64,000 bases of DNA from Candidatus Zambryskiibacteriota bacterium (lineage in GTDB: Bacteria; Patescibacteriota; Minisyncoccia; Phycocordibacterales; WO2-35-19): the NCBI GenBank assembly GCA_048499675.1, contig JASNZL010000005.1, positions 7,386-71,385 on the forward strand, written 5' to 3'. The translations under genes were made by a program, and so were the position numbers. Shown here in pieces: positions 15,454 to 40,286 of this stretch (its first letter is position 1; the number at the start of each line of letters is the position of its first letter). The notes under the pieces were generated by a model. That model saw only the letters and a list, made by a program, of their open reading frames with translations, ran no database searches and had not been told where the DNA came from.

Positions 15454-15488
15454 TAATTCTGGTAATTAACCTGAAATGCTATAATTGC

Positions 15489-18208: not shown

Positions 18209-19806
18209 AAATCCATTTTTTCTACAGTACCGTTATAGATAAGGATTTTGGGTCCATCTATTTTGCTATAAATATTTAAACTATCCTCTATTGAGTCTGC
18301 AATAGGATCACCTTTTAAATTTAGTGATGTATTTAATAAAACATATGTACCAGTATTGTCTCCAAAAACTTTTATCAAATCGTAAAGAAATGAATTTGAT
18401 TCTTTGGTGACAGTTTGTACTCGGGCGCTACCATCGTGATGGATAGCTCCTGTTAGTAGTTTTCTTTGAGACTCAACAACATCAAACTTATAGAGCATAA
18501 ATGGCGATTTTTTTGGTCCACTAAAATAATTGTTTACTTTTTCTTCAATGGTTACAGGAGCAACAGGTCTGTAAGATTCTCTTTGTTTTATTTTTTCACT
18601 TAACTTTTTCTTTACTTCAATACTGTCTGGACGAGCAATGAGTGATCTGTTACCAAGTGCTCTTGGGCCGATTTCTGATTTGCCATTGTGTAGAATTACA
18701 ATTCCATTTCGATTTAAGATGTCTACGGCTTTTAATACAGTATCTTTATCGTATGTTATGTTTTCAGCTCCTACTCCTAGATACGGGAGTTTTACATCTG
18801 GGCGACGAGTAAGTTCTTGCATGATCAAAATACTTAGAGCACCCAGCGACTGTCCTGTATCGTCGCAACATGGGGCTATGAATTGTTTTATGTTGGGAAA
18901 CGCATTAAGAATCTCGGTGTTGGTATCAAGATTTAAACTGACCCCGCCTGCCATTACTAAGTTGTTAGGATTTATTCTTGCTTTATCTATTATTCTTGAA
19001 ATATCCTTAACTCTATGTTCAGAAAATAATTTTTGAACCGAAGCAGCAAAGTCCAATTTCTCCTTTTCAAAGACATTGTTACTAAGGCTAATCTCAGAAA
19101 ACTCTTTTCTAAGGATTTTGGTGCTATCAAAATAATGCAGGCGGTTGAGTTCTGAAATAATCTTTTCCAGTTTCCCCAAAATATGTTCATTGGGTTTTCC
19201 GTAACCTGCAAGTGCCATCATCTTTCCTTCGCAGTGCATTTTTTGATAAATAAAATATGAACAAGCTCCATAGAATTTTCCATTAATAAAATCTGTAAAA
19301 TCAACCTTAACTCTAGTTAAGTTGTTGTTATCTGCTTTGAATACCGCGGTACATTCAGAGTCGCCACCACCGTCACATGTAACAACTAAAGCGTTTGTAA
19401 AATTAGACAAATAGTATGTTGCCGCATGAGCTAAGTGATGATTTATAACCAATATTTTTCTTTTTGAATCTAAGATATTGAAATCCATCCAAAACGGTTC
19501 TTTTGGTGTACCGTCATTATCGAAAATATTAATTTGATCATCCCACAGCAGAGGATTTTGCAATGTTGTCATTGCCCAGCCCTCTACATCTGATACGTCT
19601 CTTTTTAAATATTTCAACCCATACTTTATCAGAAATTCCATCTCATCTTTGTTACATCTCTTTCTTTTTTCTTTAAAAATCCTTTCTGCCTCTAATACCA
19701 AGACAACGCTCTCATTTATCGAAAAGGCTACAGAGGAGTCGTGCACATTGTAGGAAAAAGCACAGTAAAGTCGTTCTTTTATCATAATATTGATATAATC
19801 ATACAA
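18205..19806 (-). CDS. Carbamoyltransferase, NodU/CmcH/TobZ family.
   Basis: N-terminal YNVHDSSVAF and NHHLAHAATYY (HHxAHAA signature); length about 530 aa. Confidence 0.65.
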   Translation of the reverse strand: MYDYINIMIKERLYCAFSYNVHDSSVAFSINESVVLVLEAERIFKEKRKRCNKDEMEFLIKYGLKYLKRDVSDVEGWAMTTLQNPLLWDDQINIFDNDGTPKEPFWMDFNILDSKRKILVINHHLAHAATYYLSNFTNALVVTCDGGGDSECTAVFKADNNNLTRVKVDFTDFINGKFYGACSYFIYQKMHCEGKMMALAGYGKPNEHILGKLEKIISELNRLHYFDSTKILRKEFSEISLSNNVFEKEKLDFAASVQKLFSEHRVKDISRIIDKARINPNNLVMAGGVSLNLDTNTEILNAFPNIKQFIAPCCDDTGQSLGALSILIMQELTRRPDVKLPYLGVGAENITYDKDTVLKAVDILNRNGIVILHNGKSEIGPRALGNRSLIARPDSIEVKKKLSEKIKQRESYRPVAPVTIEEKVNNYFSGPKKSPFMLYKFDVVESQRKLLTGAIHHDGSARVQTVTKESNSFLYDLIKVFGDNTGTYVLLNTSLNLKGDPIADSIEDSLNIYSKIDGPKILIYNGTVEKMDF

Positions 19807-19820
19807 TAATTTATTAATTT

Positions 19821-20576
19821 ATGGAGGAACTAGATTTAAAACAGTTTTTAGAAAAATACAGAGGTACATCCGTAGATTTTTACCGTTTTCCCGGTAATTA
19901 TGGCGATTCTCTTATTTGGCATGGTACAAAGGCGTTATTGAAAGTATTAAATATTCGTGAAAATTATGTAGAAATTTCTTCACCAAAAAGCAACGATGTG
20001 TTACTAGTAGATGGCGGTGGTAATTTTGTGGATTATTATTCAGACATAAAAGATTTTTTGGTTAAAAAACCAAATTTATATAAGGAAATTGTTATCCTGC
20101 CTCATACTATTTTTGGAGATGAACAAATTGATGTCTTAAACAGTTTGTCTGGCAGTGTTACAGTATTTTGTAGAGAAAAAGTTTCTTTTGAATTATTAAA
20201 GCAAAAATTCACTAATGGTAATGTTTATTTGTGGCATGATTGCGCTTTTTATAATGTGTTTCAAAAATCTACAAATGGACAGGGGGTGTTGAATGCCTTT
20301 CGTGAAGATAAAGAATCTGTAATGGAAAGCCCATCTGAATCTAATCATGATATTTCTTATAATGGTTACGCAACCAAGCCTTTGGATGAATTTGTGGAGT
20401 ATTTAAGTAAATACAGAGAGATTAATACTGATAGATTACACGTGGCAATTTGCGGGACCTTATTGGGTAAAAAAGTTAATCTCTTTCCTAATTCTTATTA
20501 CAAAAATAAGGCCGTGTTTGGTTATTCTCTTTCTAGATTTCCAAACATTTCATTCTTAGAAAGTGTTAATATTTAA
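19821..20576 (+). CDS. Hypothetical protein (weak polysaccharide pyruvyl transferase-like hints, GGGN).
   Basis: ORF within the glycan locus; weak motif only. Confidence 0.3.
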   Translation: MEELDLKQFLEKYRGTSVDFYRFPGNYGDSLIWHGTKALLKVLNIRENYVEISSPKSNDVLLVDGGGNFVDYYSDIKDFLVKKPNLYKEIVILPHTIFGDEQIDVLNSLSGSVTVFCREKVSFELLKQKFTNGNVYLWHDCAFYNVFQKSTNGQGVLNAFREDKESVMESPSESNHDISYNGYATKPLDEFVEYLSKYREINTDRLHVAICGTLLGKKVNLFPNSYYKNKAVFGYSLSRFPNISFLESVNI

Positions 20577-20578
20577 TT

Positions 20579-21154
20579 ATGAAAATTACCTTTTCAAAAA
20601 TTTCAGAGATATTTTTAGATTTTCTAGAAAACCCTAATAAGGAACTTAATTATGGGGATGAACTTCATCGACTTTTTTACTTAAGCATAAGAACGAATAA
20701 AATTTTATGGGATTTAGAAGATTCTGCAAGGTTATCAGAATTGGGTGATAAGCATGTAGCTGATGCAAAAAAGAATATAGATGTAACAAATCAATCTAGA
20801 AATAATTTGATTAGAGAAATCGATACAATTTTATATAAATCCTTGGACATTGTTCCAAGCTCAGTTGACAAATTTTACAGTGAAAGTCCTGGAATGATCA
20901 TTGATAGGTTGTCGATAATTTTTATTAAACTTTCAATAGTTCGAAAATTAATCTCACTTATAGAAGAAGAGGATTTAAGGTCTGAATATGTAGCCAAAGA
21001 AAGAGTGCTTAGTAATCAAATAGACAATATAGGTCAATTTCTTGATATGTACATTGAAAGGCTTGTAAACAAGGATGTGTTTTTTGAGATACAACAACCT
21101 GTAAAAATTTATAATGACGAAAGGGTTAGAAAATACTTTAAATCCATCAAATAG
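20579..21154 (+). CDS. Hypothetical protein.
   Basis: 191-aa ORF, 2-nt gap to the previous gene. Confidence 0.4.
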   Translation: MKITFSKISEIFLDFLENPNKELNYGDELHRLFYLSIRTNKILWDLEDSARLSELGDKHVADAKKNIDVTNQSRNNLIREIDTILYKSLDIVPSSVDKFYSESPGMIIDRLSIIFIKLSIVRKLISLIEEEDLRSEYVAKERVLSNQIDNIGQFLDMYIERLVNKDVFFEIQQPVKIYNDERVRKYFKSIK

Positions 21155-21287
21155 CTGTTTTTTAATAGAGAGGTCAGGGACTACTTTGTAAATGAGACAG
21201 AGACCGAGACGGGTGTTTTGTGTCTCATCTGTATCATTCACAAAATGACCCCTGAGACCGAGACACCTCATACAAGGAGTAGAAGGG

Positions 21288-22409
21288 ATGGTAAAATACC
21301 CTTACGGGGTCTTACTACGCAAGTTCACATCCGTGACAGTCAGCAAGAGTCAGCGCATTATCGGCGCGACCAGAGAGCATAAAGCCCCTTATGTTATGGA
21401 TGATCAAATTGATTTTGAAAAGTTAAAATATCCAGATCATGAATCAAAGGTATCTGCTCATTTTGGCTATACACACAACCTATTTCTACAAAATGATTTA
21501 AGGAACAAAAATCTGAAGATAGACAACAATCTATCTATAATAAATCAAGAAAAAGGATTTAATTATGTAACATTTCTCTCAAAATTTATTAAAGCAAATA
21601 GAGGGATAAACCATATATCTGGTACTTATTTTTTATACAAGTATACAGGTGAGAGAAAATACTACTTTGAAGCTCAAGATAGGATACGGATGTTTATTAC
21701 CGCTATCAGGATTTATAAAAATACTAGATGTGATTATAAGATTGATTTTTCAATTGAAAATTCTAAATCAAAAAAGTTTTATAAACCTTTTGATTTCTTT
21801 GATTTAACCTCTGACATGTTTGCTACAGATGGAAAATCACAGATCACCTCTAGAAAAGAGTTCAACAAAATCAAGAAAATATATGAAAGATTAAGGGAAT
21901 CGAAATTTGAAAAAAACATTTACTATTCAAAAATCTATAATGCAGTTAAATTTTTTAATCACTCTTATGATGAACATTGGACATTACTTAAAACCACTCT
22001 TGCAATTACAGCACCAGAAAGTCTATTCTCAGATTCAGATAAACAGGAGATAACCTATAAGATTGCAATTAGGTCAGCGTATTTCTTATATCCTAATAAT
22101 CCTGAGCAACGAAAAGAGGTTTTTGATTTAATCAAATATGCGTATGACATAAGGAGCCATTTCGTTCACGGATCTGATGCAGAAAAGAAAGTTGCCAAGA
22201 TCGAAAAGAAATTACATGAAAGAAAGGGCGGTGACTATTACAGTTTTCATCATCATTTTGTAAAAGATTTGAATACGGTGATTACGGGCTGTCTGTCAAA
22301 AGCTCTTCTAGATGACGATTACTTTATGTTTTTTAACTCAACTAAAATTTCTTCTGATGATGAAAGTGAGTTTTATAATAAAATTGTTCTATCAAACAAT
22401 GCTCATTAA
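21288..22409 (+). CDS. Abi_2-family (AbiD/AbiF-like) HEPN-type abortive-infection protein candidate.
   Basis: R-[NS]-x3-H-like motif IRSHFVHGSD in the C-terminal third. The first ~100 nt are GC-rich and the rest AT-rich. Converges on the recombinase gene. Confidence 0.35.
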   Translation: MVKYPYGVLLRKFTSVTVSKSQRIIGATREHKAPYVMDDQIDFEKLKYPDHESKVSAHFGYTHNLFLQNDLRNKNLKIDNNLSIINQEKGFNYVTFLSKFIKANRGINHISGTYFLYKYTGERKYYFEAQDRIRMFITAIRIYKNTRCDYKIDFSIENSKSKKFYKPFDFFDLTSDMFATDGKSQITSRKEFNKIKKIYERLRESKFEKNIYYSKIYNAVKFFNHSYDEHWTLLKTTLAITAPESLFSDSDKQEITYKIAIRSAYFLYPNNPEQRKEVFDLIKYAYDIRSHFVHGSDAEKKVAKIEKKLHERKGGDYYSFHHHFVKDLNTVITGCLSKALLDDDYFMFFNSTKISSDDESEFYNKIVLSNNAH

Positions 22410-23693
22410 TTTAATGTAATAGCCTTATTTTTGAGAATAATCTTGCTTTTTATTGATCCAAGAAATAGCCTCTTCTCTTCAATTGATCCTTGAGTCAGGA
22501 TATACACGACGTATTGTTTTTGATCAAAATCTACTTTGCTTAATTCTGGCTTAACTCCATAGAATTGCTGCTGGAATTTCTTGGCTCGCTCTCGCTCTTC
22601 GTTAAACCTCTTAAGGATAAAATTGTCGTCCAACTCCAGACCACTAATCTGTTCAATTAGTTGTTTGATAATTTCTTCTTCTCGTACATACCCACATTTG
22701 CAATCCCGATTTCTTGATCTTGAGCACCCATAGTATATGTATTTTGCTACTCCACCCTTTGACTAGTTTTTTAAACTTCTCATCAGCAGTAATACCAGAA
22801 CCACAAAGTCCACAAGACATCATTTTTGTAAAAGCGAATTCTTTGTTCTCCGATCGAATAATTGATCTGGTTGTTTGTTCCTGAACTTGATCAAACAATT
22901 CTTTGGTAATTAAAGGTGTGTGTTTACCTGTATACCAATTATTGCTTTTAACAGGATATTCAAATACGCCATAATAAAAAGGGTTCTGTAAAAGTTGAAA
23001 AATATTTCTAAGACTTAACCCCTTATTACCAGTTACACTTTTAAAATTGAGATCAAATTTAAGCCAATTGTATACTTTTCTTCCACTCCATTTTTCGTAA
23101 GCCACTTTCTCAAACATTTTCTTAATAATAGGTCCTCGTTCTGGATCGATAAGCGTCTCACATTTTCTATCCATTCGTTTTTCTTTGAAATATCCAGTTG
23201 GAGCAGGGGCGGGCCATAGTCCAAGTTCACATTTAGTCTTAAGTCCACGCTTCACATTTATACTCTTGTTGTCATTTTCGAGCTTTGCTTGAAAGCCTAG
23301 TATCATAAGAAGGAACTTCTCGTTGGGGTTATTAGTAAAGCTCTGACTGTATGTGCGTATCTCGACTAGCTTTTGTTGATCGAGTAGGTCTACCACTGCT
23401 CCTAAGTCACCGGCATTCCTAGCCAATCTATCTGGATGCCAAACTAATATTCCGTTAAATTTACCTTCTCGTATATCTAGTAATAGTTTGTTATATACAG
23501 GTCGCTGACCACAGTCTTTGGCAGAGTGAGACTCTCTATACATATCTACAATATTGAGATTGTCTCTTTGAGCGATTGTTAGCATCTCCTTGATCTGGCT
23601 GTCGATGCTCATCGCCTGGCGCTCATCCGACTCGGTACTCTTTCTTGCATAGAGGCAGTACCTCAGTTCCTCTCTTGATATGTTTGGTCCCAT
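22406..23693 (-). pseudogene. Large serine recombinase (phage-integrase type) with an apparent frameshift near 22755-22765.
   Basis: N-terminal catalytic motif LYARKSTESDE (Ser nucleophile) and a recombinase domain. The zinc ribbon CGLCGSGITADEKFKKLVKG continues in another frame as GVAKYIYYGCSRSRNRDCKCGYVREEE plus a coiled-coil tail (ORF 22406-22633). Confidence 0.65.
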
Positions 23694-24174
23694 ATATGTT
23701 GTGTGATTATTTTTGTTAATTAATTCCTCGACACAACACAAGGAATGACGCGACCCTTTTGGGGAGTCCAGACCCCGCTGTTGGTAACTTTTGCTTCGCA
23801 AGTCTCTATTACTAAGCTAGAACACAAGGGCCAGCAGGCAGTCTTGGGTCATCGGTTACTACGGTTATCGATGTACTCAAGATTCAAGTCCAATCCGGAT
23901 TTGGCACTGGCGGGAAACCTGTACGCAGGCAGAGGCTCCGATTTCCTGATCTCCACGGAGAGGCGGAGAAACAGAAGCCCTTCCCGCCAGAACCAAGTCC
24001 AGACCAAACGACTTCATATCACCCTAAATTACAGTTTGAGTGAGCACCAAAACATAACTCGTCTTTTGATTTGGTCCTTGTGTGAAGCAATAAATTGTGT
24101 TATGGTGGTGCCGATGAGAAATCCATGGCGGCTTTCTCAAAACAGTTCATTCACAATCAAAAAAGGAGTCAATC

Positions 24175-24897
24175 ATGTCCAGTAAAGGTCTCTTGATGCT
24201 CGAATTGGAGTCCCGACTCCTTTGCGAGTACGATGATGGGAATTTCTGCTCGCTGATATTCGGTCTCAGCCGTAACACAGTGCTTGAACTTCCTTCAGGA
24301 TATACCCATTTCGGCCTACTGGTCGAAGGTCGCGCGGCGGTCTCGCACAATGGAAGAATTCGTCATCTGTATGATGGTGACTTCTTCTCTGTTGTCGGAC
24401 CTGCCAAGGTCATCAGTAAGGGAATGGGAATTGTCACTTCAGCCAAAGGTTACCGAGGATTCAATGTCTTCGGTGGCCCATTGGAGGAAAAAGGCAAGCT
24501 CCGCTACATCAACGGTTGCACCGACACTTTGTTGGTACCTCCGGTGCGGAAAGGTGATCCTTGTCTGAATCACCTGCATTTCCCGCCACACTCTGTGCAG
24601 ACACCCCACACGCACCCTTCGGTACGCGTTAACATCGTCTACCGCGGATCGGGTGTATGCCTGGTGCCAGAAGACGAGAAAAAGCGGGTACCGCTCGTGA
24701 AAGGTTACGTCTTCATCATGAAGACGAATACTTTACACAGCTTCGACACTGAAGATGAAAGCATGGACGTCATCACTTTCCATCCCGATAGTGATGTCGG
24801 AATGACTGATGACGATCATCCCATGGTCAATCGCACGATTGTTGATGGGGTAAGTGCGAAATTCATCGACCACATCAGAACAGGAGGTGGAGAATGA
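24175..24897 (+). CDS. Cupin-domain protein.
   Basis: HLHFPPHSVQTPHTHP-type cupin motif; GC-rich gene with SD AAAGGAG. Confidence 0.4.
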   Translation: MSSKGLLMLELESRLLCEYDDGNFCSLIFGLSRNTVLELPSGYTHFGLLVEGRAAVSHNGRIRHLYDGDFFSVVGPAKVISKGMGIVTSAKGYRGFNVFGGPLEEKGKLRYINGCTDTLLVPPVRKGDPCLNHLHFPPHSVQTPHTHPSVRVNIVYRGSGVCLVPEDEKKRVPLVKGYVFIMKTNTLHSFDTEDESMDVITFHPDSDVGMTDDDHPMVNRTIVDGVSAKFIDHIRTGGGE

Positions 24898-25592
24898 AAA
24901 CACTGCACGTGAGCGCTGGTGGCCGCGGTGAACGTATCGCGGCCTACATCTCATCCATCCGACCGTTTCTCCCGAAGCACCTCTTGCCAATTCCTACGGA
25001 AGGCAGGACAATCTTGGGTGAGATAATCTTCAAAGCACATACGCATTTCGAGGAAATCACGGTCTGGTCAAGCAAGGAGACCTATCCTCGGATTGCGTTG
25101 GCGCTCGAATATCTGATGCCTGTCGGGGTGCGAGTGGATGCGAAAATGACTGGTCCGCTAGGGCCGATGGTACGGAGGTTGCTCGCAACGAGACAGCGCA
25201 CGTTCGGTTGTGCCGGCGACTTCTATTGCGATTTTTCTTGGAAGGAGTTCGAGAAATTCCATGAAGCTCATGGACTCCCGATCTCAATCCTCGTCGCAAA
25301 GAGTGTTCCGGCTCCCGGTGGCGCACGTTTTCATCTGAACGGTGGCGACATCACAGGGTGGGAACGAGTCGAAAAGACTACCAAGGACGATAGGATCAAC
25401 ATTGGCTGTTACATCATTGATCCCGTTCCCGAGGTCGTCGCCTGTCTTGAGGCAATGAAGAAACACAAAGAAGATCCATTCTTTGACATCTTCATACCCA
25501 AGAAGCTCGTTGCCGGATATGACCCAGGCTTATCCGGCTTCAACGTCAATGTTGCGGAAGTGTATGAACATCTCCTGCACGTCTTGGCGTAG
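24894..25592 (+). CDS. Nucleotidyltransferase-family protein (sugar-phosphate/MobA-like NTP transferase).
   Basis: N-terminal LHVSAGGRGERI, G-G-x-G-x-R-like; 4-nt overlap with the cupin gene. Confidence 0.4.
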   Translation: MKTLHVSAGGRGERIAAYISSIRPFLPKHLLPIPTEGRTILGEIIFKAHTHFEEITVWSSKETYPRIALALEYLMPVGVRVDAKMTGPLGPMVRRLLATRQRTFGCAGDFYCDFSWKEFEKFHEAHGLPISILVAKSVPAPGGARFHLNGGDITGWERVEKTTKDDRINIGCYIIDPVPEVVACLEAMKKHKEDPFFDIFIPKKLVAGYDPGLSGFNVNVAEVYEHLLHVLA

Positions 25593-25646
25593 GGAGGGCG
25601 TAGAAGCATGCGTCCTCCCTTTTCCTAACTCAAAACCAAAGGAGCA

Positions 25647-26102
25647 ATGATGAAAGTAATAACTGAGTGCACGATCAAACTCGCCAAGAGGCGAAAGATC
25701 CAAGACGTCATCAGGGCGAGTAAATACGATGAGGTTAATTTCCTCATCACGGAAGGAGCCAGTAAAAAAAGACTGTCTCTTAGTGACGAGGAAGTTGGCG
25801 AGCGGACGATCGTTGTCGTCAGCACTGATGACGAAAGTATCAGTTCAGGCGATGTGCTTTCCGAAGCACGGCGCATGGGATTGGTTCGTCCAAGCTATGG
25901 AGATGCCTTCCTTATCGGGGAGCAACATCCTGACGAGCAGATTGCAGGGCCGATCGTCTTTCTCCACGATCCGCAGTACATGTGGAGCGGACACTCCTTC
26001 AATCTTGTTCTCGACGTAAGTCGGAAGGGGCGGATCATCAGTTTCGTATCTTCCGGCGGTTGGTGGCATAGTGGTTTTCGCTTCGCTTTCAGAAAGAAGT
26101 GA
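25647..26102 (+). CDS. Hypothetical protein.
   Basis: SD AAAGGAG; followed by a strong terminator hairpin at 26139-26176. Confidence 0.45.
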   Translation: MMKVITECTIKLAKRRKIQDVIRASKYDEVNFLITEGASKKRLSLSDEEVGERTIVVVSTDDESISSGDVLSEARRMGLVRPSYGDAFLIGEQHPDEQIAGPIVFLHDPQYMWSGHSFNLVLDVSRKGRIISFVSSGGWWHSGFRFAFRKK

Positions 26103-26138
26103 CGCCAATACTGCGCCATCGCGTCAACCCTAGCAGGT

Positions 26139-26176
26139 AACGGTCAATCGTTACCTGCTTTCTTTTTTCATAAAAA
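26139..26176 (+). terminator. Rho-independent terminator.
   Basis: AGCAGGTAACG-gtcaat-CGTTACCTGCT followed by TTTCTTTTTTC. Confidence 0.6.
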
Positions 26177-26187
26177 TAATTTACAAT

Positions 26188-26760
26188 GTGATCACTATGG
26201 GAAAAACAAAAGTCATTTTTCTGCGCCACGCTGACACACAGAAAGACCCAAATCTCAATGCGGCTATGTGGGGACTTTCCGAAGAAGGAAAAAAACAGGC
26301 CGAAGACATTGCGAGTTTGCCAATCATGAATGAGGTAGACGTAATTTACGTCTCTGAAGAGAGGAAAACAGCCTTGACTGTTGAATCATTGGCAAAAAAA
26401 TTGGGAAAAGAGGCAGTTCCTCTCGCGTTTTTTGATGAGGTAAAAAGAGGGGATAAATTTCTAACGAAAGAAGAGTTTGAAGCGGAGAAAGCAAAACAAC
26501 TCAAAGACCTTGATTATCAGGCTTTTGGTGGTGAATCAGGCAAAGAAGCTCTCGCGCGGTTCAAACAGGGTGTCGAACAAATATTAAAGGAAAATCCGGG
26601 TAAAACAGTTCTCATTGTTACTCACGGCACTGTTCTGAATATTTACTTTGCCGATTTGTTGAATGCGTACGATAAGCTCCCAGAACGTTGGCAAAAGACC
26701 GCCTTCTGCGCGTATGGGGTGGTTGAAGATGGGAGTGTGGCGAAAGATATAATCTCTTAA
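26188..26760 (+). CDS. Histidine phosphatase (phosphoglycerate mutase-like) family protein.
   Basis: VIFLRHADT (RH motif) and LIVTHGTV. Confidence 0.6.
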   Translation: MITMGKTKVIFLRHADTQKDPNLNAAMWGLSEEGKKQAEDIASLPIMNEVDVIYVSEERKTALTVESLAKKLGKEAVPLAFFDEVKRGDKFLTKEEFEAEKAKQLKDLDYQAFGGESGKEALARFKQGVEQILKENPGKTVLIVTHGTVLNIYFADLLNAYDKLPERWQKTAFCAYGVVEDGSVAKDIIS

Positions 26761-26764
26761 CTTT

Positions 26765-28222
26765 TTAAAGTATTGTAATTTCTCCCCTCGTTGCGTCAAC
26801 CCTTACTTTTTGGCCATCTTTCAGAATTCTTGTTGCTTCTTTAACACCGATACAGCATGGTTTGTTAATTTCCCTGCATACAACTGAAGCATGGCTCAAG
26901 ATGCCACCTTCTTCAGTAATGACAGCAGCCGAACGATACATCGCTTCTATTAAATCAAAGTCTGTTCCAATAGCGATCATAATGTCACCTTGGAGAACCT
27001 TGTTACTATCTTCTTTTGTCAAAACAATTTTGCATTCTCCTTCACAGACTCCCCGTGACGCGCATTGTCCGCGAAGAATGTTCGGTGTTGCATCTTCCGA
27101 TTGTATTGGTAATACGTCTGCTGTATGTAATTTAAAATCTTCAAACCGTGTAAATGTTACCCCGTTTGTTTTTCTTGAAATAATTTCTTTTGTGTCCAAC
27201 TTCTTTGCATGACGTAATAAGTCGGTTATTTCTGCCAAAAGGTAGAAGTTGAGGTTATCTCTGGTTTCTAAATTTCTGCTCGCAATTCCATCAAGTATCT
27301 CAAACCGATACTTAACACTTTGGCCCAAAAGAGCTTTGTTAGTATCTCTAAAAAGCCCACCTTGTACCAACAGAGGTACAAGCACATTTAATTTTTTGTT
27401 GTTTATCTTGCGTAGTAAATTACTTGATTCCTTGGAAAGAAGCTTTGGAAGAATAGTATGTTTTTGAGGCTTAACTTCACCCGATAGAAACTTCTGAAAG
27501 TCAGACCAGAAAACTTCAAATTTAGCCGGATCTTCACCGTATGCTGAATAGAGATACTTGTACCTTTCATAATGACGCTGAACGTCCTTTTTGGCTTTTT
27601 GCTCGTTAAAAAACGATAGTTTTTTCAAGACTCTCCATTTTCTAGCGATTTTATAGAGTTTCGTTTTTTCATTTTGTGAGGCAGACGGCTTTTCCGTTTG
27701 AATCAAACGCACAAATAAATCCTCTACCTTTTCTTTGTCGGCCTCTATCTCGCTGATAACTCTTTTAACAGCGATATTTAAACCGTGCTCTACCTGAACG
27801 AAATTCAAAACATACAATTCACCCAAAACGATAGATTGGAAATGAATCAGTAATGATGCTAAGTCCTTGTTCGGTAATTCGGAAAACTTTGTTTGTTGAA
27901 GCTTTTTTATAAAAGCATGAAAATGTTCTCGTTTTCGTCGATAGAGTATTTCAGTGCTCTCTATTAAAATCGGATCAAGCGAATAATATTGGTCGCTAAG
28001 AATTTCTCCTAATCTGTCCCATTCATGAACCGGAGCGTAAGAATTCACAATTCCATCTTTCCAAATGGTGATTGTGTGTCTAAATCTGATTGAGTTTATT
28101 TTTGGTTCATGCCGGTTATAAAGATCATGAATAAATTCAACACCCAGTAAATGGGCAATACTCCGCATATTTATTCGTCTCCATTCGGTCGACTTATTTT
28201 TTACATCTATATTTTCAATCAT
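26765..28222 (-). CDS. PEP-utilising-enzyme mobile (phosphohistidine) domain protein; C-terminal half of a rifampin-phosphotransferase/PEP-synthase-like kinase.
   Basis: C-terminal GGILSHASVVCREINKPCCIGV (swivelling His domain). Lies 4 nt downstream of the ATP-grasp gene. Confidence 0.6.
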   Translation of the reverse strand: MIENIDVKNKSTEWRRINMRSIAHLLGVEFIHDLYNRHEPKINSIRFRHTITIWKDGIVNSYAPVHEWDRLGEILSDQYYSLDPILIESTEILYRRKREHFHAFIKKLQQTKFSELPNKDLASLLIHFQSIVLGELYVLNFVQVEHGLNIAVKRVISEIEADKEKVEDLFVRLIQTEKPSASQNEKTKLYKIARKWRVLKKLSFFNEQKAKKDVQRHYERYKYLYSAYGEDPAKFEVFWSDFQKFLSGEVKPQKHTILPKLLSKESSNLLRKINNKKLNVLVPLLVQGGLFRDTNKALLGQSVKYRFEILDGIASRNLETRDNLNFYLLAEITDLLRHAKKLDTKEIISRKTNGVTFTRFEDFKLHTADVLPIQSEDATPNILRGQCASRGVCEGECKIVLTKEDSNKVLQGDIMIAIGTDFDLIEAMYRSAAVITEEGGILSHASVVCREINKPCCIGVKEATRILKDGQKVRVDATRGEITIL

Positions 28223-28226
28223 AATG

Positions 28227-29174
28227 TTATGGTTTTAAAGTAGTTATAGGTCTTGCTTGCAGAAGCTTAAATCTGCCGTTTTCTGTTGCCCATTCGATAT
28301 CAACCGGATATCCAAAAACTTTTTCAATTTGCAAAACCAATTCTGCAAGTTCTATAATTTCGTTATCAGACAGAACTTGTTTTTCACCTGTTTCTTTTAG
28401 TATTTCGCGCCATTCATTTCCACCTCTTTCTGCACGATAAAGACCTTTTGTTTGAATCTGAATATTCTTATCAATAATCCGCACTGACTGTTTTTCTGCC
28501 ACATAGGTATCCGGTGTAACTTGTCCGGATACGATGGGCTCACCCAATCCGAATCCCGCCTCTATGATAAGTTGATTTCTATCTTGCGTTATTGGATGAA
28601 CAGAAAAAGCGATACCCGACCTATCGCTTTCAACCATTTTTTGGATCACTATAGCGATGGATAGTGCCGAGTCATTTAGGTTTTTCTGAAAACGGTAAAA
28701 GATAGCACGGGGAGCAAATAATGAAGCCCAACATCTTCTGATATTTTCCAACAGATTTTCTTCTGTGGTGTTTAGGTAACTTTCAAGCTGCCCAGCCCAC
28801 GCTGCATTTGTTGAATCTTCAGCGGTAGCCGAAGAACGAACAGCGACATATTTTGAATCAAGGTCCTTGAAAGACCTTTTGATTTCATCAGCAATATCTT
28901 CCGGTATTTCAGCTCCAAATATTAAAGCTTGGATTTTTTCAGAAACATTCTCAATCGTGTGTATTTCTTTGTGATTAACAGAAGCTAGCGCAGCGTCAAT
29001 TTCCACATTCAAATCAGTTTCTTTTAGAAAATTCTCAAAGGCAGTTGTAAGTACGACAAAACCAGATGGAACTGGTATTCCTGCTTTTGTCATTTCTCCG
29101 AGCGAAGCGCCTTTACCTCCGGCAAGAGCAACATCGTTCCTACTGATTTTTTCAATTGATTGTATAAACTCCAT
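28227..29174 (-). CDS. PEP/pyruvate-binding ATP-grasp domain protein (PPDK_N-like); N-terminal half of a rifampin-phosphotransferase/PEP-synthase-like kinase.
   Basis: N-terminal ALAGGKGASLGEM. Confidence 0.6.
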   Translation of the reverse strand: MEFIQSIEKISRNDVALAGGKGASLGEMTKAGIPVPSGFVVLTTAFENFLKETDLNVEIDAALASVNHKEIHTIENVSEKIQALIFGAEIPEDIADEIKRSFKDLDSKYVAVRSSATAEDSTNAAWAGQLESYLNTTEENLLENIRRCWASLFAPRAIFYRFQKNLNDSALSIAIVIQKMVESDRSGIAFSVHPITQDRNQLIIEAGFGLGEPIVSGQVTPDTYVAEKQSVRIIDKNIQIQTKGLYRAERGGNEWREILKETGEKQVLSDNEIIELAELVLQIEKVFGYPVDIEWATENGRFKLLQARPITTLKP

Positions 29175-29271
29175 GAGACATTTATGATTTTATCAAATTT
29201 ACGCTTAGTCTCATAATTCACCAAACAGATCAAGCCTCCATCTCCAAAAAAGATTGTGCTAAAATACACCC

Positions 29272-29757
29272 ATGATCATCTTCCTCAACGGTTCCATAAA
29301 TGCGGGCAAGAGCACGGTGGCGAGACTCTTGGCAAAAGAACTGCCGAATGTAGCACTTGTGGAGATTGACGCTTTGCGCGAGATGATTGCTTGGATGCCG
29401 ATTGACGAGACGGTGCCTATTAATCTCGAGAATGCCGTATCGCTCATCCGCAATTTCGTCAAAAGAGGTTTGAATGTCATCGTCCCATACCCGCTCTCGG
29501 AGAAAAACTATCACTATGTGATGGAAGGATTGAAAGACCTGGGTGCGGTAATACACGTCTTCACGCTTGCGCCGAGTATGGAGGCGGCACAAGCCAATCG
29601 AGGCGAAAGAGAAATCACCATGCAGGAGCGAGAACGGATCAAATATCACTACGACATCGGCATACACAGCCCCTCGTTCGGGGAAGTGATAGACAATACC
29701 GACCAAAGTCCGGAGGAAACAGCGAGGTATATTCTTGAGCGCCTCAAAATTCTTTGA
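29272..29757 (+). CDS. Chloramphenicol phosphotransferase-like (CPT family) P-loop kinase.
   Basis: MIIFLNGSINAGKST...IDALREMIAWMP resembles the CPT N-terminus; about 160 aa. Confidence 0.5.
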   Translation: MIIFLNGSINAGKSTVARLLAKELPNVALVEIDALREMIAWMPIDETVPINLENAVSLIRNFVKRGLNVIVPYPLSEKNYHYVMEGLKDLGAVIHVFTLAPSMEAAQANRGEREITMQERERIKYHYDIGIHSPSFGEVIDNTDQSPEETARYILERLKIL

Positions 29758-30040
29758 CAATCTTTTTAGTCACGGCATCCACAAAAAGTCGAAACGTAGG
29801 CCTGTTTTCTTTTTCATACAACATCCTTATCCCAAGCACATGCCCTTTTGGGCAGGCAAATTCTTTCCCGCTCGTCTCGACTGCTGGCTCATTGATACGA
29901 TCAATGTACATGCGGCGCAAATGTCCCGGTCCGTCTTTTTGATAGAAGCAAATGAAGGCGTTGCATTTTCTACAGCGGATATCCAAAAAACGTGAATAGC
30001 CGCCCCGAGATTTCTTATATTTATCGTTCTTTATTTTCAT
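29744..30040 (-). CDS. Small Zn-ribbon hypothetical protein.
   Basis: CRKCNAF...CPKGH four-Cys/His pattern. Confidence 0.3.
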   Translation of the reverse strand: MKIKNDKYKKSRGGYSRFLDIRCRKCNAFICFYQKDGPGHLRRMYIDRINEPAVETSGKEFACPKGHVLGIRMLYEKENRPTFRLFVDAVTKKIVKEF

Positions 30041-30602
30041 AGATTCGAATAAAGTCTTCTTGGTCTTTTAGTCTTCCTTCTATAACCGCATCATAAATTT
30101 CTTGACTGACCATCGGCAACTTGTTTCGATTGCGATATTCTTTACAAGAGAGAATAAGAGACCGTTGTTCTGCTGAAAGATTCGCCATCCGCGTATCGTT
30201 TGCGGAACGTTTTTTGAATTCTTTTTCACTCACAAACCATACATCCACCTTCCAACGTTCCCCGTTGATTTTCTCTTTTAATCCGATATAGTATCCTTCC
30301 GGAAATTTCGCTCCTTTACGCGGATCATCCCAATCCCCGCCGATAAAGTAGCTACGGAATGTTCCCTTGAAATATAACGCCCTAAAGATTTCAAACACCT
30401 CCTCAACCGCATATGGCTTTTCACGAACCACAGAAATATCGATATCGCCATGCAACATGAGGTTGTATTTATACGCACCGGTGAAGTGTACCGTGCCGTA
30501 GCGTGAGAGATCGGCAATGAAGCCTGTCTTCGACAAGAGCTCATCGGCTTTCTGTTTCCATATATTGGTTGCGATTAGTATGTCGTCCGGTTTTCTATCC
30601 AT
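30021..30602 (-). CDS. Nucleotidyltransferase-fold protein (Pol-beta superfamily; ANT/Lnu-like).
   Basis: FTGAYKYNLMLHGDIDISV (G..10..DxD). Confidence 0.35.
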   Translation of the reverse strand: MDRKPDDILIATNIWKQKADELLSKTGFIADLSRYGTVHFTGAYKYNLMLHGDIDISVVREKPYAVEEVFEIFRALYFKGTFRSYFIGGDWDDPRKGAKFPEGYYIGLKEKINGERWKVDVWFVSEKEFKKRSANDTRMANLSAEQRSLILSCKEYRNRNKLPMVSQEIYDAVIEGRLKDQEDFIRIYENKER

Positions 30603-30625
30603 ATTGCTTCATTTATTCAGTTTTT

Positions 30626-31450
30626 TTATTCATTCTTACTTACACTTTCCCACCACTTCTCGAGCTTCGGCTTGTATCCTTCTTTCCACGATATCGGGAT
30701 CACGAAATCGTCCGACCACTTTTGGTATTCGCCGTGCAGGGTTTTTTCAAAAAGCTGTCTGTAGCAACTCATCCTATCGTCGATATTTTGGCTCGCGGAA
30801 TAACGGTGAAAAAGCGATCGGAAATCCGGGTCATTTTTCTCAAGGTACTTTATCGCCGTCTTTTCCCCACGCCATGGAATATCTCGGAAAGAGAAATAAG
30901 CGGTAATGAGTTCCATGGTGCTATAGAGCAGGCGCATTTCCAAAGCTTCCTGATATAACGTGTCATTCGAGTCATAGTAGCGAGAATTCGCGATGAAGTT
31001 GTAATTGATTTTGATCCAAAAGTCTTTTTTCTCCGCATCGGGAACTTTCTGCATCGGTGGTTTGCTCTTGATCTCCTGCTTCAAGTTTGCGAGTAGATTT
31101 TCATAGTCATATTCCACTTTGCCTTTCGAGAGCCATTCCAAAAACATTCCCTCAAAAGCATTGGAGAGAATTTCCTTTTTATCCCCCAATTTTTGGACAA
31201 AATCAGTATCAAAAAAGAATATATCGGCGAAATGATTTTCCGCCATTGTGTAAACCGATTTTATATCCTCGCTGTTCCTGTCAAGAACAACGACAAGGTC
31301 GATGTCACTCGAAGGAGAAAGGGATGTCGCGGTGGTACCGGTGGTGAAGATCCCCCTCACTCTTGGCGAGGCTTTCAATGTATCTATGAGTTTTTCTAAT
31401 TTCATCGTTCTGCTTATTTTATCAAATTTCCATTCAGTCTCATAATCCAT
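30626..31450 (-). CDS. Aminoglycoside-adenylyltransferase-like nucleotidyltransferase (ANT/AadA-like).
   Basis: GIFTTGTTATSLSPSSDIDLVVVL. The start is placed at the ATG overlapping the upstream stop (ATGGATTATGA). Confidence 0.5.
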   Translation of the reverse strand: MDYETEWKFDKISRTMKLEKLIDTLKASPRVRGIFTTGTTATSLSPSSDIDLVVVLDRNSEDIKSVYTMAENHFADIFFFDTDFVQKLGDKKEILSNAFEGMFLEWLSKGKVEYDYENLLANLKQEIKSKPPMQKVPDAEKKDFWIKINYNFIANSRYYDSNDTLYQEALEMRLLYSTMELITAYFSFRDIPWRGEKTAIKYLEKNDPDFRSLFHRYSASQNIDDRMSCYRQLFEKTLHGEYQKWSDDFVIPISWKEGYKPKLEKWWESVSKNE

Positions 31451-31760
31451 CAAATGGATCGAAATCAGCCATCTCCTCCGTGAGCTTCTCCATCTCCACG
31501 AGGACTTTGCGATAGATGGTTTTGATGCGTTCTTTGTCCGTTCCCTCAATCACAGCGTCGACATCTTCATCGGGCACAAACGAGGCGAGCGATATGTATG
31601 AACCCACCAGCAAGCGAACGCGCTCCTTGATGGCGCGCTTCAGCCGCTTCTTTGATTCGGGAAGGCGGGAAATGCGGTTAAGCAAAACCTTATCCGGCCT
31701 TTCGTGGAATCGGTAATGCTGCGCCTCTTTGATGACTTCCTCGATGTCGTCTCCCTGCAT
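31440..31760 (-). CDS. Small helical hypothetical protein, translationally coupled to the nucleotidyltransferase.
   Basis: 106-aa ORF; ATGA-type overlap. Confidence 0.35.
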   Translation of the reverse strand: MQGDDIEEVIKEAQHYRFHERPDKVLLNRISRLPESKKRLKRAIKERVRLLVGSYISLASFVPDEDVDAVIEGTDKERIKTIYRKVLVEMEKLTEEMADFDPFDGL

Positions 31761-32391
31761 GCTTCAAGGGATGACACTGATCGCTTGGGGAGGCAAGTTG
31801 GTAAGTCAAGGTGACACGTCAGCATAACCAGAAACATGTCACTTTGTGTCACATTCAGCTGCTAATATCCTGCATATTCACCAAATGAGACACCGAAAGA
31901 GGAGTTCTAAGGTGTGTCTCATTTGTCTCTGTCTCACCCTGCTCCTGGCAAAAGTGACACTCCAAAATGCCGTTTTCGTGTCACTTTTGTCACTTTTTGG
32001 GTGCCAGAAAATTGGCATTTGTTGGCATTTGAGACATAGCCTAATACCCCTTACCTATGTCCCATTCGTCTCAGAAAGAGACCCCGACCTAAGAGCGTCA
32101 GTGGCATGGGCGGAAAACGTCTCAAAAACGCTTACGGGGTCTCACTGTCCGGGCACCAGACCTAAGAGGTCAGCAAACGAGGGAAGCTCTGTTTGATGGG
32201 GAGAGCAAAGCAACAGTTTGCTTTGTGGACAGGGCTCGAAAACCTTGAGTATATTTTTGAAAAGCTTTGTTTAGAAAAAATACAAAAGGTGTACAGCGTC
32301 TGTAAGACGAGAGACCCCTGGCTCCCCAGCCAACTTCTCATGTGTTTCAGTTTATACTTGTCGCCTTATATTCCAAAATCTGTTATAATGT

Positions 32392-33129
32392 ATGTATATG
32401 AAAAACATAAAAATAATTGGGGTGGTTGTTGCCCTAGCAATAATTATTGGATTGGTTTGGTTTAATAGAGGTGGAGGAGAGCAACAAGTTTCAAGACTTG
32501 ATGTTGTTGATACTGCAAGAGGTTTTTATGATGAGTGGCTTCTTGCCTTGAAAGAACCAGAAACTGCAGAGCCGAATATAAAGACTTTGGCCAAGTCTCC
32601 TATTTTGAGCAAAGAGCTTAGAGACAAGATTAAAAAAGCGCAAAAGAACGAAGAGGTAGATCCTGTTTTGTGTCAAACTACTGTGCCGGAAGAAATTTCT
32701 ATGAGAAGAGTTTATTTGAGTGAAGAGGAAGTACAAATGCTTGTCACATCAAAAGACACAAATGTTACCGAGCAAGCTCTTGTTGTATTAAAAAGTTTAA
32801 ACGAAGGATGGTATATAAATGATATAAGGTGTTCGCTTGGAGAGTTTGCACCAGAGAGAGAATTTAGTTTTGAAAAAGAAGGATTCTTGCTGAAAGATTC
32901 TGTCCCAGCTCCTTATGACTCAAAAAATTGGCATTTGGTTTTTGAACAAGATGGACAAATGGGTCATGTAGTGCCACTTTTGTTTGATGGAGAGAGTGAG
33001 TGTACTAGTTTGGATGGAACTAAATCTACCTGTGACACAAGCACTTTTGCTGAAGCTCTAAAAGTTGTTGTTAAGAGTCAAATGACTGAAAGGGGGGCGG
33101 AAGTAAAGTATTTGGAGTTTGTTAAATAA
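32392..33129 (+). CDS. Membrane-anchored hypothetical protein.
   Basis: N-terminal TM IIGVVVALAIIIGLVWF; AT-rich host-like composition. Confidence 0.5.
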   Translation: MYMKNIKIIGVVVALAIIIGLVWFNRGGGEQQVSRLDVVDTARGFYDEWLLALKEPETAEPNIKTLAKSPILSKELRDKIKKAQKNEEVDPVLCQTTVPEEISMRRVYLSEEEVQMLVTSKDTNVTEQALVVLKSLNEGWYINDIRCSLGEFAPEREFSFEKEGFLLKDSVPAPYDSKNWHLVFEQDGQMGHVVPLLFDGESECTSLDGTKSTCDTSTFAEALKVVVKSQMTERGAEVKYLEFVK

Positions 33130-33176
33130 ATATCATTGAAGATTGTTGGGGTTTGATTTGTAAAAAATAAAAGAAG

Positions 33177-33209
33177 AGGGTCGGGCGAGTCTGTGACTCG
33201 CCCGACCTC
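33177..33209 (-). terminator. Rho-independent terminator for the minus-strand gene 33215-33529, possibly bidirectional.
   Basis: GGGTCGGGCGAGTC-tgt-GACTCGCCCGACC, with a T-run on the minus strand. Confidence 0.55.
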
Positions 33210-33214
33210 TGATT

Positions 33215-33529
33215 TCAGATATTGAACTGCTCTTTGGCTTCCTTTCGCCCCTTGAAGCGCATTTTGGCGGAGACGCTCCGCATCTCCTCGGTGAGGGCCC
33301 GCCTCTGCTCGAGGAGAGGGTTGAGTACGTCTGTCTCAAAGTTGATGATTTTCGAGACGAGTCCAATTCTCATATAGTTGGAGTCTTCATCATCCCGATC
33401 GCCGAGATCGGCGAGTTTTTTGTTTTGGACTCTCTGGAATTCGAGGACCCCGATTATTCGGTTCTCGATTTTTTGGATCTGGGCAGAGATCCACACAATT
33501 CTCTCAACTCGCGCTTCCTTTTTGGTCAT
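33215..33529 (-). CDS. Hypothetical protein (GC-rich islet).
   Basis: 104-aa ORF ending at the terminator. Confidence 0.35.
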   Translation of the reverse strand: MTKKEARVERIVWISAQIQKIENRIIGVLEFQRVQNKKLADLGDRDDEDSNYMRIGLVSKIINFETDVLNPLLEQRRALTEEMRSVSAKMRFKGRKEAKEQFNI

Positions 33530-33618
33530 CTTGACCTCCTTACTATATTATACCAAATTTGGAGAAAAAAAGCAAGTTTTTTGTTGGGTCAAAATGTATT
33601 AAGAACTTGTGTTAAAAT

Positions 33619-34128
33619 TTGATTATGGAAATAAAATCTAAAATGGTAAATAGGTTGGGTCAGGATTTGGACCTTATATATTATGAAGGACTTAATCCAA
33701 ATGAGAATTTAGAAGGTAAAATATTGCAAGCGGTTCATGGTTTTTGTTTTTATGGAGATAAGATTGTCATTGTTTTCGCTGAAGAAAAAGGATACTGGAC
33801 TTTTCCGGGCGGAGGAATAGAAATTGGAGAAACTTATGAGGAAGCAACAGTTCGTGAAGTTAGAGAAGAATCTAATATGAAAGTATCACATCAAGAACTA
33901 ATTGGATTTCAAGATATTTTTGAACCTGATAGGGTAGTCAGGCAAACTCGCTCTTTTTGTTTGGTTGAACCGTATGGAGAATTTGCAGGTGATCCTGATG
34001 GTGATATTACTGAAATAAAACTAATTGATCCGAAAGATATCAAAAAATATATTGATTGGAAAGAAATAGGAGATAGAATTATGAAAAGAGCGCTCCAAAT
34101 GAAAGAGGAGTATTACAGTAAGATTTAA
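33619..34128 (+). CDS. Nudix hydrolase (paralog B', about 70% identical to 11685-12188).
   Basis: FPGGGIEIGETYEEATVREVREESNM and EPYGEFAGDPDGDITEIKLIDPKD. Confidence 0.75.
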   Translation: MIMEIKSKMVNRLGQDLDLIYYEGLNPNENLEGKILQAVHGFCFYGDKIVIVFAEEKGYWTFPGGGIEIGETYEEATVREVREESNMKVSHQELIGFQDIFEPDRVVRQTRSFCLVEPYGEFAGDPDGDITEIKLIDPKDIKKYIDWKEIGDRIMKRALQMKEEYYSKI

Positions 34129-34143
34129 GCTAGAGATATATTA

Positions 34144-35133: not shown

Positions 35134-35176
35134 ATAGTCTCAAACAAATTCTCAAAGATTTGAAGAAGTGTTAGAC

Positions 35177-35917
35177 CTATTCTAGAAATAAAAGTAGAGC
35201 CATAGAACCCACTCCAACAGCTATTGATACAAGTTGGAGAATAGATTGGCCAGTTTTGTTTGATTTTTGAAGTTCGGGTACGAGGTCTGATAGGGCAATA
35301 TATACAAAACCGCCAGAAGCGATAGGTATGAGAAACATTGTTATATTTTCTATATATTTGGAAATTGTAAATACAAACAAAACACCAACAATAGAGAATA
35401 GGGCAGAGATGAAATTGTAAAGCAGGGCTTTTGCTTTTGTGTAGCCCGAATGTATCAAAACACCAAAGTCACCAATTTCTTGAGGAATTTCGTGAATGAT
35501 GATTGCAAGTGTGGTTGCGATACCGATTTCTATACTCACAAGATAACTTGCTCCAATAATTAGACCGTCAATAAAATTGTGTATTCCATCAGAAAATAGA
35601 ATCATTTTGCCGACCGGGTGAGGATTTTTGCAATCAGTTTCGTGGTGGTGCCAGTGAAGAAACTTTTCAAGAATAAAGAAAATCAAAATACCTACAATTA
35701 CAAAAATTGAAACGAGGTTTTTGTTTTCAAATTCTTCGTAAGCTTCTGGAAGAAGGTGTAGGAATACATCTCCGAGAAGGGCTCCAACTGCGAGAGCAAC
35801 CAAAACAAAAACATACTTCTTTAATAGGTCCTCCCTTATAGAAATTGTAAGTGCTCCGATTAGTGAAATTAGGCTTACCAAAATGACACTTCCAAACGAA
35901 TAAATATATATTTCCAT
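35177..35917 (-). CDS. ZIP-family metal (zinc) transporter.
   Basis: HNFIDGLIIGASY and HEIPQEIGDFGVL motifs. Confidence 0.7.
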   Translation of the reverse strand: MEIYIYSFGSVILVSLISLIGALTISIREDLLKKYVFVLVALAVGALLGDVFLHLLPEAYEEFENKNLVSIFVIVGILIFFILEKFLHWHHHETDCKNPHPVGKMILFSDGIHNFIDGLIIGASYLVSIEIGIATTLAIIIHEIPQEIGDFGVLIHSGYTKAKALLYNFISALFSIVGVLFVFTISKYIENITMFLIPIASGGFVYIALSDLVPELQKSNKTGQSILQLVSIAVGVGSMALLLFLE

Positions 35918-36005
35918 ACAAATAATTGAGTTATAAAAAGTAATATATTAACAATGAAGAGTATAACATTTTTTTAAATTTCATATTATGGAGTATAATT
36001 GAAAT

Positions 36006-38629: not shown

Positions 38630-38655
38630 TTTTCACTTTCAATTTAAATGTTTTT

Positions 38656-40272: not shown

Positions 40273-40286
40273 TTTAATATGTTTAT

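Follow-up and report, generated by a model that had tools for sequence, protein, structure and literature searches.

A Disabled Serine Recombinase Island, Distal of Two Stacked behind tRNA-Gln, in a Patescibacteria Chromosome

We describe a segment of the genome of Candidatus Zambryskiibacteriota bacterium that lies at positions 21345-32174 of a 64,000-nucleotide stretch (the window) of contig JASNZL010000005.1. With good confidence we consider this 10.83-kb segment, here termed element B, to be an integrative island of a Patescibacteria-wide family that has a compact large serine recombinase (LSR) and inserts at the 3' end of tRNA-Gln. Element B is a real but disabled mobile island, the distal one of two islands stacked behind tRNA-Gln.

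Organization of the Locus

From left to right, element B consists of one arm of an LSR attachment site (the P' arm), a HEPN-like open reading frame (ORF), the LSR pseudogene LSR1, cargo genes, two palindromes (palA and palB) and a conserved non-coding stretch, the right module (Table 1). Its junctions, 21344/21345 and 32174/32175, both lie immediately after ...CAGC. The proteins of the flanks are closest to those of Patescibacteria metagenome-assembled genomes (MAGs; Yonathbacteria, Zambryskibacteria and Paceibacterota), and we take the window to be chromosomal because housekeeping genes (two class I tRNA synthetases, BipA, PGI, YchF and others) occupy it from 36 kb rightwards. The GC content of the insert is 43-51%, vs. 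33-35% for host DNA, and an earlier note on this stretch, made by eye from the letters and their ORFs, was correct in placing a switch to GC-rich DNA to the right of the recombinase gene (49-51% at 24-26 kb, vs. ~33-35% in the surrounding and host DNA). Further short GC-rich patches (45-48%) occur at 46-47 and 54-56 kb of the window, in surroundings of 33-36%.

Table 1. Features of element B and its borders, in window coordinates. Loci and contigs used for comparison are given as L numbers.
Feature	Position	Strand	Basis
Left module (type 1), right end of element A	21190-21344	+	nhmmer profile (24 members) match 21191-21344, E=3.8e-45; alignments A1, A2
P' arm of LSR attachment site (AAGAGTCAGCGCATTATCGGCGCGACCAGAGAGC...), left end of element B	21345-21392	+	same arm after genuine tRNA-Gln in L151-154 and L068-071; after module in L096
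Cargo ORF, 337 aa, R-x4-H motif (RSHFVH)	21396-22409	+	ORF list, translation
LSR1, large serine recombinase pseudogene	22406-23693	-	Pfam PF00239, PF07508; three-frame translation
Conserved non-coding stretch upstream of LSR1 start	23710-23819	-	blastn to region just upstream of LSR in L132 (70% over 121 nt), also L142, L091
Block of cargo genes	24175-31760	mixed	Pfam, NCBIfam, PADLOC and PHROGs scans
Cupin; three ORFs without known function; histidine phosphatase	within 24175-31760		Pfam
PPDK_N / PEP-utilizers enzyme, split in two ORFs	26765-29174	-	Pfam
P-loop kinase	29272-29757		Pfam
ORFs of 98 and 193 aa	within 24175-31760
Pol-beta-type nucleotidyltransferase	30626-31450	-	Pfam
106-aa ORF	31440-31760	-
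palA, perfect palindrome CAAATGAGACAC-N18-GTGTCTCATTTG (31883-31924), then TGTCTC repeats	31883-31936	+	sequence
palB, perfect palindrome AAAAGTGACAC-N17-GTGTCACTTTTG (31951-31991), overlapping GTCACTTTTGTCACTTTTTG	31951-31999	+	sequence
Right module, diverged, element B's own; its end ...CACCAGACCTAAGAGGTCAGC is the P arm	32012-32174	+	nhmmer 32056-32174, E=0.026; alignment A3 with L155 and L156 modules
Native host DNA after tRNA-Gln (B' side), outside the element	32175-32323	+	L159 match

LSR1 has a Resolvase domain (PF00239, E=5.3e-24, residues 50-192) that includes the YARKST motif, and a Recombinase domain (PF07508, E=6e-12), so that the large serine recombinase gene read here by the earlier note stands as far as its domains are concerned; the gene is, however, not intact. 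A frame shift near 22750-22765, inside the zinc ribbon, places the C-terminal 80-90 residues in another frame and breaks the gene into ORFs of 346 and 75 aa (428 aa for the repaired protein), and PF07508 is consequently not followed by a zinc ribbon/coiled coil (PF13408) in one intact ORF. Homologues of LSR1 number in the thousands across Patescibacteria sequences, at 63-73% identity, and these are intact, have PF13408 and share a family length of 430-445 aa. The frame shift recurs in at least three further assemblies and is not a sequencing error, because the truncated 346-aa form (P0003) is recorded in four contigs from independent assembly runs, and element B is therefore no longer mobile by itself. 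Judged from its sequence, LSR1 is best regarded as a member of the LSR family by descent that has been inactivated.

The composition of LSR1 changes in mid-gene (window 23300-23700), its 5' half being GC-rich and its 3' half AT-rich and host-like, which suggests a mosaic gene. Upstream of it, a 146-aa ORF at 23745-24185 looks spurious, and the 470-bp stretch there is probably non-coding and holds the 110-nt block that is conserved upstream of LSRs in L132, L142 and L091. The block itself (23710-23819) is probably a promoter or leader.

An Empty Site in a Related Genome and a Tandem Array

In the closely related genome L159 the tRNA-Gln gene (6761-6832) is joined directly, with 0 bp between, to the homologue of window 32175-32323. 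Window positions 32171-32330 match L159 6829-6987 at 89.4%, the two sequences are 86-91% identical over window 32396-44405 (12 kb of the right flank), and a window protein of this flank has an 89% identical homologue in L159. An uninterrupted attB, which the earlier note had proposed to seek in relatives, is thus present in L159, and the integrated element of ~11 kb with an LSR that it had envisaged gains firm support, as L159 lacks the entire insert. The same comparison bears on the notion that the region is ancestral chromosome of odd local composition, into which nothing was ever inserted. All available assemblies of the strain do carry the region, as that notion would have it, but the 0 bp found in L159 is to be set against 34.2 kb between tRNA-Gln and the native downstream DNA in our strain, and the GC content of the insert departs from that of the host; we regard an ancestral, contiguous origin as scarcely credible.

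The left border of the insert was located on L164, a contig of the same strain, which matches window 1-10545 at 100% identity and reaches 2.4 kb further left. There, tRNA-Gln lies 2.05 kb to the left of the window and the DNA upstream of it is syntenic with L159. A second LSR gene, LSR2 (550 aa, 32% identical to LSR1), occupies L164 11004-12667, approximately 0.5-2.1 kb left of the window start, and its 3' end overlaps the tRNA-Gln(ttg) gene, where the recombinase of a first element at the tRNA would be looked for. LSR2 and tRNA-Gln mark the true left border of a 34-kb island array. tRNA-Gln is 34.2 kb from the native downstream DNA, and the insert in between consists of two tandem elements, A and B. 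The element to which the earlier note drew attention, B, is one unit of this two-element array and not a solitary insertion. Element A (~23.4 kb) runs from tRNA-Gln to window position 21344, where it ends in the left module. Besides LSR2 it carries genes for a Toprim primase and for type III restriction, both in window 1-10.6 kb, and a glycosylation cluster.

The native 147-nt segment that follows tRNA-Gln (window 32175-32323; L159 6833-7020) terminates in another stretch that resembles the 3' end of a tRNA (GGCTCCCCAGC). Behind it, in L159, come first a P'-like arm (ACGAGTGAACATGGTATCGGTGTGACCAGAGAG) and next NUDIX and peptidase S51 genes, and domains similar to this second tRNA-like end (ACAGGGAC...GTCCCTGT) follow the module in L124, L126, L130, L134 and L139. 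The second end might represent either a further landing site or the fossil of a junction. Three NUDIX paralogues flank the array (window 11188-12188 and 33619-34128), those at 11.2-12.2 kb lying inside element A. The only sizeable polymorphism among the strain assemblies (window 10791-11070 vs. L001 319-490) involves small ORFs upstream of the first NUDIX gene.

The Non-coding Module Family

Both elements end in copies of a conserved non-coding module of approximately 155 nt, which are on the same strand. The left module contains the run GAGACA-GAGACC-GAGACG, a second GAGACCGAGAC block and an imperfect palindrome, and ends in a mimic of the tRNA-Gln 3' end, AGTTCACATCCGTGACAGTCAGC; the right module shares its 5' flank with L135. 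A palindrome pattern scan of viral contigs, in which the other matches were mostly due to chance, located 74-84% identical copies of window 21190-21392 together with an LSR homologue in L096/L091 and L117, and a pattern built from the invariant blocks recovered 25 further loci in metagenomes. The comparison set consisted of 26 metagenome loci, two viral contigs or elements and seven LSR-homologue loci. In viral contigs, pattern scans gave no match to the full palindrome, to the shared block CTTACGGGG or to the repeat TTGGCATTTG, and a looser pattern for the 3' block gave one chance match there, in a ligase gene.

In all family loci the module is ~155 nt long, starts at GTAAATGAGACAG and ends abruptly at GACAGTCAGC. 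One subgroup has, ahead of the module, a palindrome of the palA type and an extended -10-like box. The distance between module and LSR gene is 0-3 kb in seven loci and 7-10 kb in two others. The last ~25 nt of the module (GGTTCAAGACC...CAGC) copy the T-loop and acceptor of the tRNA at the same distance from the junction, with GGTTC positioned 23 nt from it in module and tRNA-Gln alike, the module copy being degenerate rather than identical. Both modules of the window have this T-loop/acceptor-like ending (GGTTC...CAGC), the junction copy to be looked for at each end point of a tandem array. We know of no description of a 155-nt tRNA-mimicking module; it is a previously undescribed conserved non-coding element that is not in Rfam.

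Alternatively, RNA function might explain why the module is conserved: it could encode a small RNA, tRNA-like or regulatory, or form a 5' leader or 3' UTR, and lie at element ends only secondarily. Consistent with such a role, it is co-oriented with the flanking genes in ~19 of 24 loci, the extended -10-like box of the one subgroup is at a fixed upstream distance, variants that differ in sequence retain the potential for a hairpin between the two GAGACCGAGAC blocks, and the 3' end is T-loop-like. The structural evidence points the other way: the RNAalifold consensus reaches only -4.9 kcal/mol with almost no covariation, minimum free energy z-scores are ~-0.7 on both strands, a pair scan identified no helix with convincing covariation, ARAGORN finds no tRNA, and Rfam 15 gave no match at gathering threshold in the window, more permissive searches returning chance hairpins only. 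We consider an RNA gene or leader improbable, while allowing it a minor chance. An intrinsic terminator after the module, a candidate piece of evidence for a small RNA, was discarded, being better explained as native DNA downstream of tRNA-Gln.

Junctions at tRNA-Gln and a Proposed Mechanism

That the module is the end of an integrative element is the reading we prefer, and it derives from the comparison of junctions. The integrated layout of the family is tRNA-Gln, P' arm, cargo ORF(s), LSR gene (convergent), more cargo and module, followed by native downstream DNA. Four classes of junction were observed (tRNA/native DNA, tRNA/P', module/P' and module/native DNA), all of them after ...CAGC. 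The P' arm is found after a genuine tRNA-Gln in the loci given in Table 1, and after a module in the window as in L096. At loci of P0074, an LSR that is 93-95% identical to that of L096, there is no module, and tRNA-Gln is immediately succeeded by the 49 nt that L096 and the window (21345-21392) have after the module; the loci of P0004 are arranged likewise. In all four informative independent LSR loci (L068, L151, L156 and L158), tRNA-Gln is on the 3' side of the LSR gene and in the same relative orientation, although in L156 and L158 the two are separated by 2.6 and 6.5 kb of cargo, respectively. L156 has tRNA-Gln at one end of a 13-kb island and the module at the other, and the DNA downstream of tRNA-Gln in L141 (tRNA-Gln/B') is shared with L139 and L124 (module/B'). 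Both LSR types pair with the module family, because in L145 a module is joined to an LSR2-type P' arm. Although LSR loci free of GAGAC clusters would suggest that LSR and module are unconnected, the P' arm connects them.

On the mechanism that we propose, LSR dimers would recombine an attP consisting of the module end plus P' with an attB consisting of the tRNA-Gln end plus native DNA. Module/P' on the left of element B and module/native DNA on its right are the junctions that would be expected from conservative recombination into an occupied site. The tRNA-like end of the module would re-create a usable landing site, and elements could in this manner accrete in tandem.

Several points weigh against this reading. 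Canonical LSR rules allow only attP x attB, and not attP x attR or attP x attL, and integration into a module/B' or tRNA/P' site is unorthodox. A fused or dimeric element that integrated, or homologous recombination, could also account for the layout. There is little resemblance between the left and right modules (E=0.026 for the right copy), and the left unit is without palA, its homology to the L096 unit beginning abruptly at the stop codon of the DUF4254 gene, which hints at an extra deletion. The crossover is localised to the shared CAGC(A) and no finer; around this junction a TCGA-type motif is, by eye, roughly mirrored 15-20 bp out on both arms. Neither an excised circle nor an empty site of the same strain was seen, all assemblies of the strain carrying the island. 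An examination of the synteny of the DUF4254 left flank in 185,000 genomes yielded no empty site, the glycosylation cluster itself being widely transferred and synteny ending after it.

A broader version of the mechanism can be entertained tentatively, although we hold it to be rather doubtful as a whole. Each element of the LSR family might deposit a functional decoy of the tRNA-Gln arm, the 155-nt module, at its far end, and this self-renewing pad could stack defence and metabolic islands in integron-like fashion, with the GAGAC/palindrome array acting as a platform for accessory factors or as the template of a small tRNA-like RNA that controls the use of junctions.

GAGAC/GTCTC Clusters and Palindromes

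The earlier note drew attention to GAGAC/GTCTC at both non-coding ends of the region, and the enrichment is borne out. The 64 kb contain 115 copies (1.8 per kb), and the 200-bp windows richest in them are 31887-32086 (seven copies; Poisson probability per window 1.1e-7) and 21189-21388 (six copies; 2.2e-6). No other 200 bp of the 64 kb has more than three, so that the motif is far from equally frequent across the whole. Six copies lie in 21194-21260 and ten in 31887-32311. The perfect inverted repeats (palA and palB), the direct GTCAC repeats and the shared block CTTACGGGGTCT(T/C)ACT (21301-21316 and 32131-32146) likewise occur where that note had placed them. To these we can add an imperfect third copy of the palindrome at 21190-21231, with arms ATGAGACA-N21-TGTCTCAT at 21192-21228.

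palA marks the start of the right-end unit of element B, and a palA-type site opens the conserved unit in L096, L133, L136, L137, L140, L142 and L145; the far-end modules in L155 and L156 begin with GTCACTTTTGTCACTTTTTG. Within the right-end unit the GAGAC runs and palindromes are conserved, and they lie 110-290 bp from the crossover; the 5' part of the region that they occupy resembles DNA that natively follows tRNA-Gln in other genomes. No GAGAC cluster was found at the LSR-homologue loci, including same-family junctions at genuine tRNA-Gln genes. Repeats in the window are 5-6-bp units and palindromes, not the 17-22-bp tandem direct repeats of an iteron origin, and Pfam scans of the window proteins revealed no Rep-family domain.

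These observations bear on whether the GAGAC/GTCTC repeats and palindromes are themselves recombinase-binding termini, in the manner of transposon-like ends or iterons, with recombination taking place within them. The clusters are highly non-random and close to both junctions, the geometry of the palindromes fits LSR att sites (8-12-bp arms, 18-21 bp apart), and the conserved unit always opens with such a palindrome. However, the homology breakpoints of occupied, empty and circular type all fall after CAGC and at a distance from the palindromes, both palindromes are intact rather than hybrid, attL sites of the same family at a real tRNA-Gln (L151, L068) are without a GAGAC cluster, and there is neither a Rep gene nor 17-22-bp direct iterons; we rate such termini as very unlikely. 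The reading of both blocks in the earlier note, as termini or regulatory sites of a mobile element, is right insofar as they mark junctions, but the repeats are not the recombination sites. Its assignment of the blocks also requires amendment, as the left one is the end of element A and ~150 bp of the right one (32175-32323) are native host DNA. The hexamer runs of GAGAC and the ATGAGACA/GTGACAC palindromes might instead be conserved sites for an accessory or regulatory protein; they are not the crossover sites. A crossover between palA and the module, considered on account of the unit being split over both island ends, was rejected, there being no dyad symmetry at that place and the CAGC junctions explaining all comparisons.

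The palindromes might alternatively flank an invertible segment of 10.7 kb that is flipped by the serine recombinase. Such a segment would account for the opposite orientation of TGAGACAGAGAC at the two ends and for L004, in which a homologue of the nucleotidyltransferase directly follows DUF4254 on the other strand. Three independent assemblies nevertheless cross the left junction in one orientation only, and no contig joining 21.2 kb to 31.9 kb in inverted orientation was seen; the modules are in direct orientation, the recombinase is frameshifted and the L159 comparison explains the layout without inversion. Inversion has, in our estimation, a negligible probability, and insertion at CAGC is the reading that we retain.

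Cargo of the Islands

Annotation of the element B cargo with PADLOC, NCBIfam and PHROGs was almost uninformative, and no candidate recombination directionality factor was identified. The 337-aa ORF next to the P' arm has no match in Pfam, NCBIfam or PADLOC, and its R-x4-H motif, recognized by eye, is suggestive of a HEPN nuclease. Some assemblies have this ORF called with 337 aa and others with 373 aa; the longer version, from 21288, runs too far and intrudes on the conserved non-coding module. The PPDK_N / PEP-utilizers enzyme is encoded by ORFs of 315 and 485 aa that are 4 nt apart and together have a rifampin-phosphotransferase-like architecture; a fused version of 1042 aa adjoins the LSR gene in L068, and the split enzyme may be a pseudogene or naturally split. 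A 45-nt direct repeat with 82% identity (29187-29231 and 31416-31460; MDYETEWKFDKI / VNYETKRKFDKI) duplicates the junction of a small ORF end with the start of the nucleotidyltransferase and is the scar of an internal duplication or replacement. The 106-aa ORF has no homology to the gene that diverges from palA in L096.

The glycosylation cluster of element A (window 13268-21154) consists of eight genes (glycosyltransferases, a carbamoyltransferase, a pyruvyl transferase and DUF4254) and is conserved, at protein identities of 50-83%, across MAGs from numerous Patescibacteria lineages and as far afield as bins of Bacteroidota and Proteobacteria; L003 has it 0.9 kb past a tRNA-Gln. Other islands of the LSR family (L151, L155, L156, L158 and L067) are rich in defence genes, including type I and type III-like restriction, ThsB-TIR, CBASS (SMODS/SAVED, Cap15 and CD-NTase), Gabija-like AAA_15 plus UvrD, and MutH plus Dcm. 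Islands of the family also carry ParB-methylase and small and large terminase-like genes, which suggests phage-satellite-like elements. On the LSR-bearing contig L130 a LOOT RNA (Rfam RF03000, 68 bits; 269-382, minus strand) lies 4 kb from the module.

Relation to Known Systems and Significance

Prophages and islands mobilized by LSRs include Bxb1, phiC31, A118 and TP901-1. The family described here resembles them in the resolvase, recombinase and zinc-ribbon/coiled-coil architecture of its enzyme, in carrying cargo, in having the integrase gene 0-2 kb from one element end and in its sharp junctions without long identical repeats. It differs in that the target is a tRNA gene, in that the recombinase is unusually compact (~430-445 aa) and highly conserved (63-73% identity), and in that one att arm is extended into the conserved 155-nt tRNA-mimicking module. 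The tRNA island arrays of tyrosine integrases (Islander/TIGER; PMC7192596) are similar in their insertion at the tRNA 3' end, in the copy of the tRNA 3' end at the distal end and in the stacking of a second island at the regenerated site; here, however, the integrases are serine integrases that need no extended identity, and the distal repeat, although in exact register, mimics the tRNA end in degenerate form and does not duplicate it exactly. In 2020, the targeting of t(m)RNA genes by serine integrases was called previously unreported and in need of proof, being predicted for only 14 of 297 elements (PMC7192596). Iteron origins, transposon terminal repeats and Tn3 res sites resemble the present region in that palindromes and clusters of short repeated motifs occupy the non-coding DNA bordering a mobile element, but here there is no Rep or transposase gene, the units are 5-6 bp long and the junctions are elsewhere.

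SCCmec-type islands are moved by the CcrAB serine recombinases and reside at the 3' end of rlmH/orfX. In them, too, a conserved gene receives cargo islands at its 3' end through serine recombinases, the site is regenerated at the far end, and composite or tandem islands build up. The host phylum, the target (a tRNA here) and the recombinase subfamily are different, and the islands of the present family, which are known from sequence alone, each have just one recombinase gene together with a non-coding module that is long and conserved.

Patescibacteria (CPR) have tiny genomes, and to our knowledge very little is known of their mobile DNA. If correct, our reading would provide a sequence-level model, covering attB, attP-type, attL and attR junctions, of an abundant serine-integrase family that brings restriction, CBASS, Gabija-like and glycosylation cargo into these bacteria. 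It would also extend to serine integrases a class of target, the tRNA genes, that has been regarded as the province of tyrosine integrases and has been only tentatively predicted for serine integrases (PMC7192596). The compact and conserved LSR, its near-universal tRNA-Gln target and the defined attP-side module would, moreover, make the family of practical interest as an integration tool.

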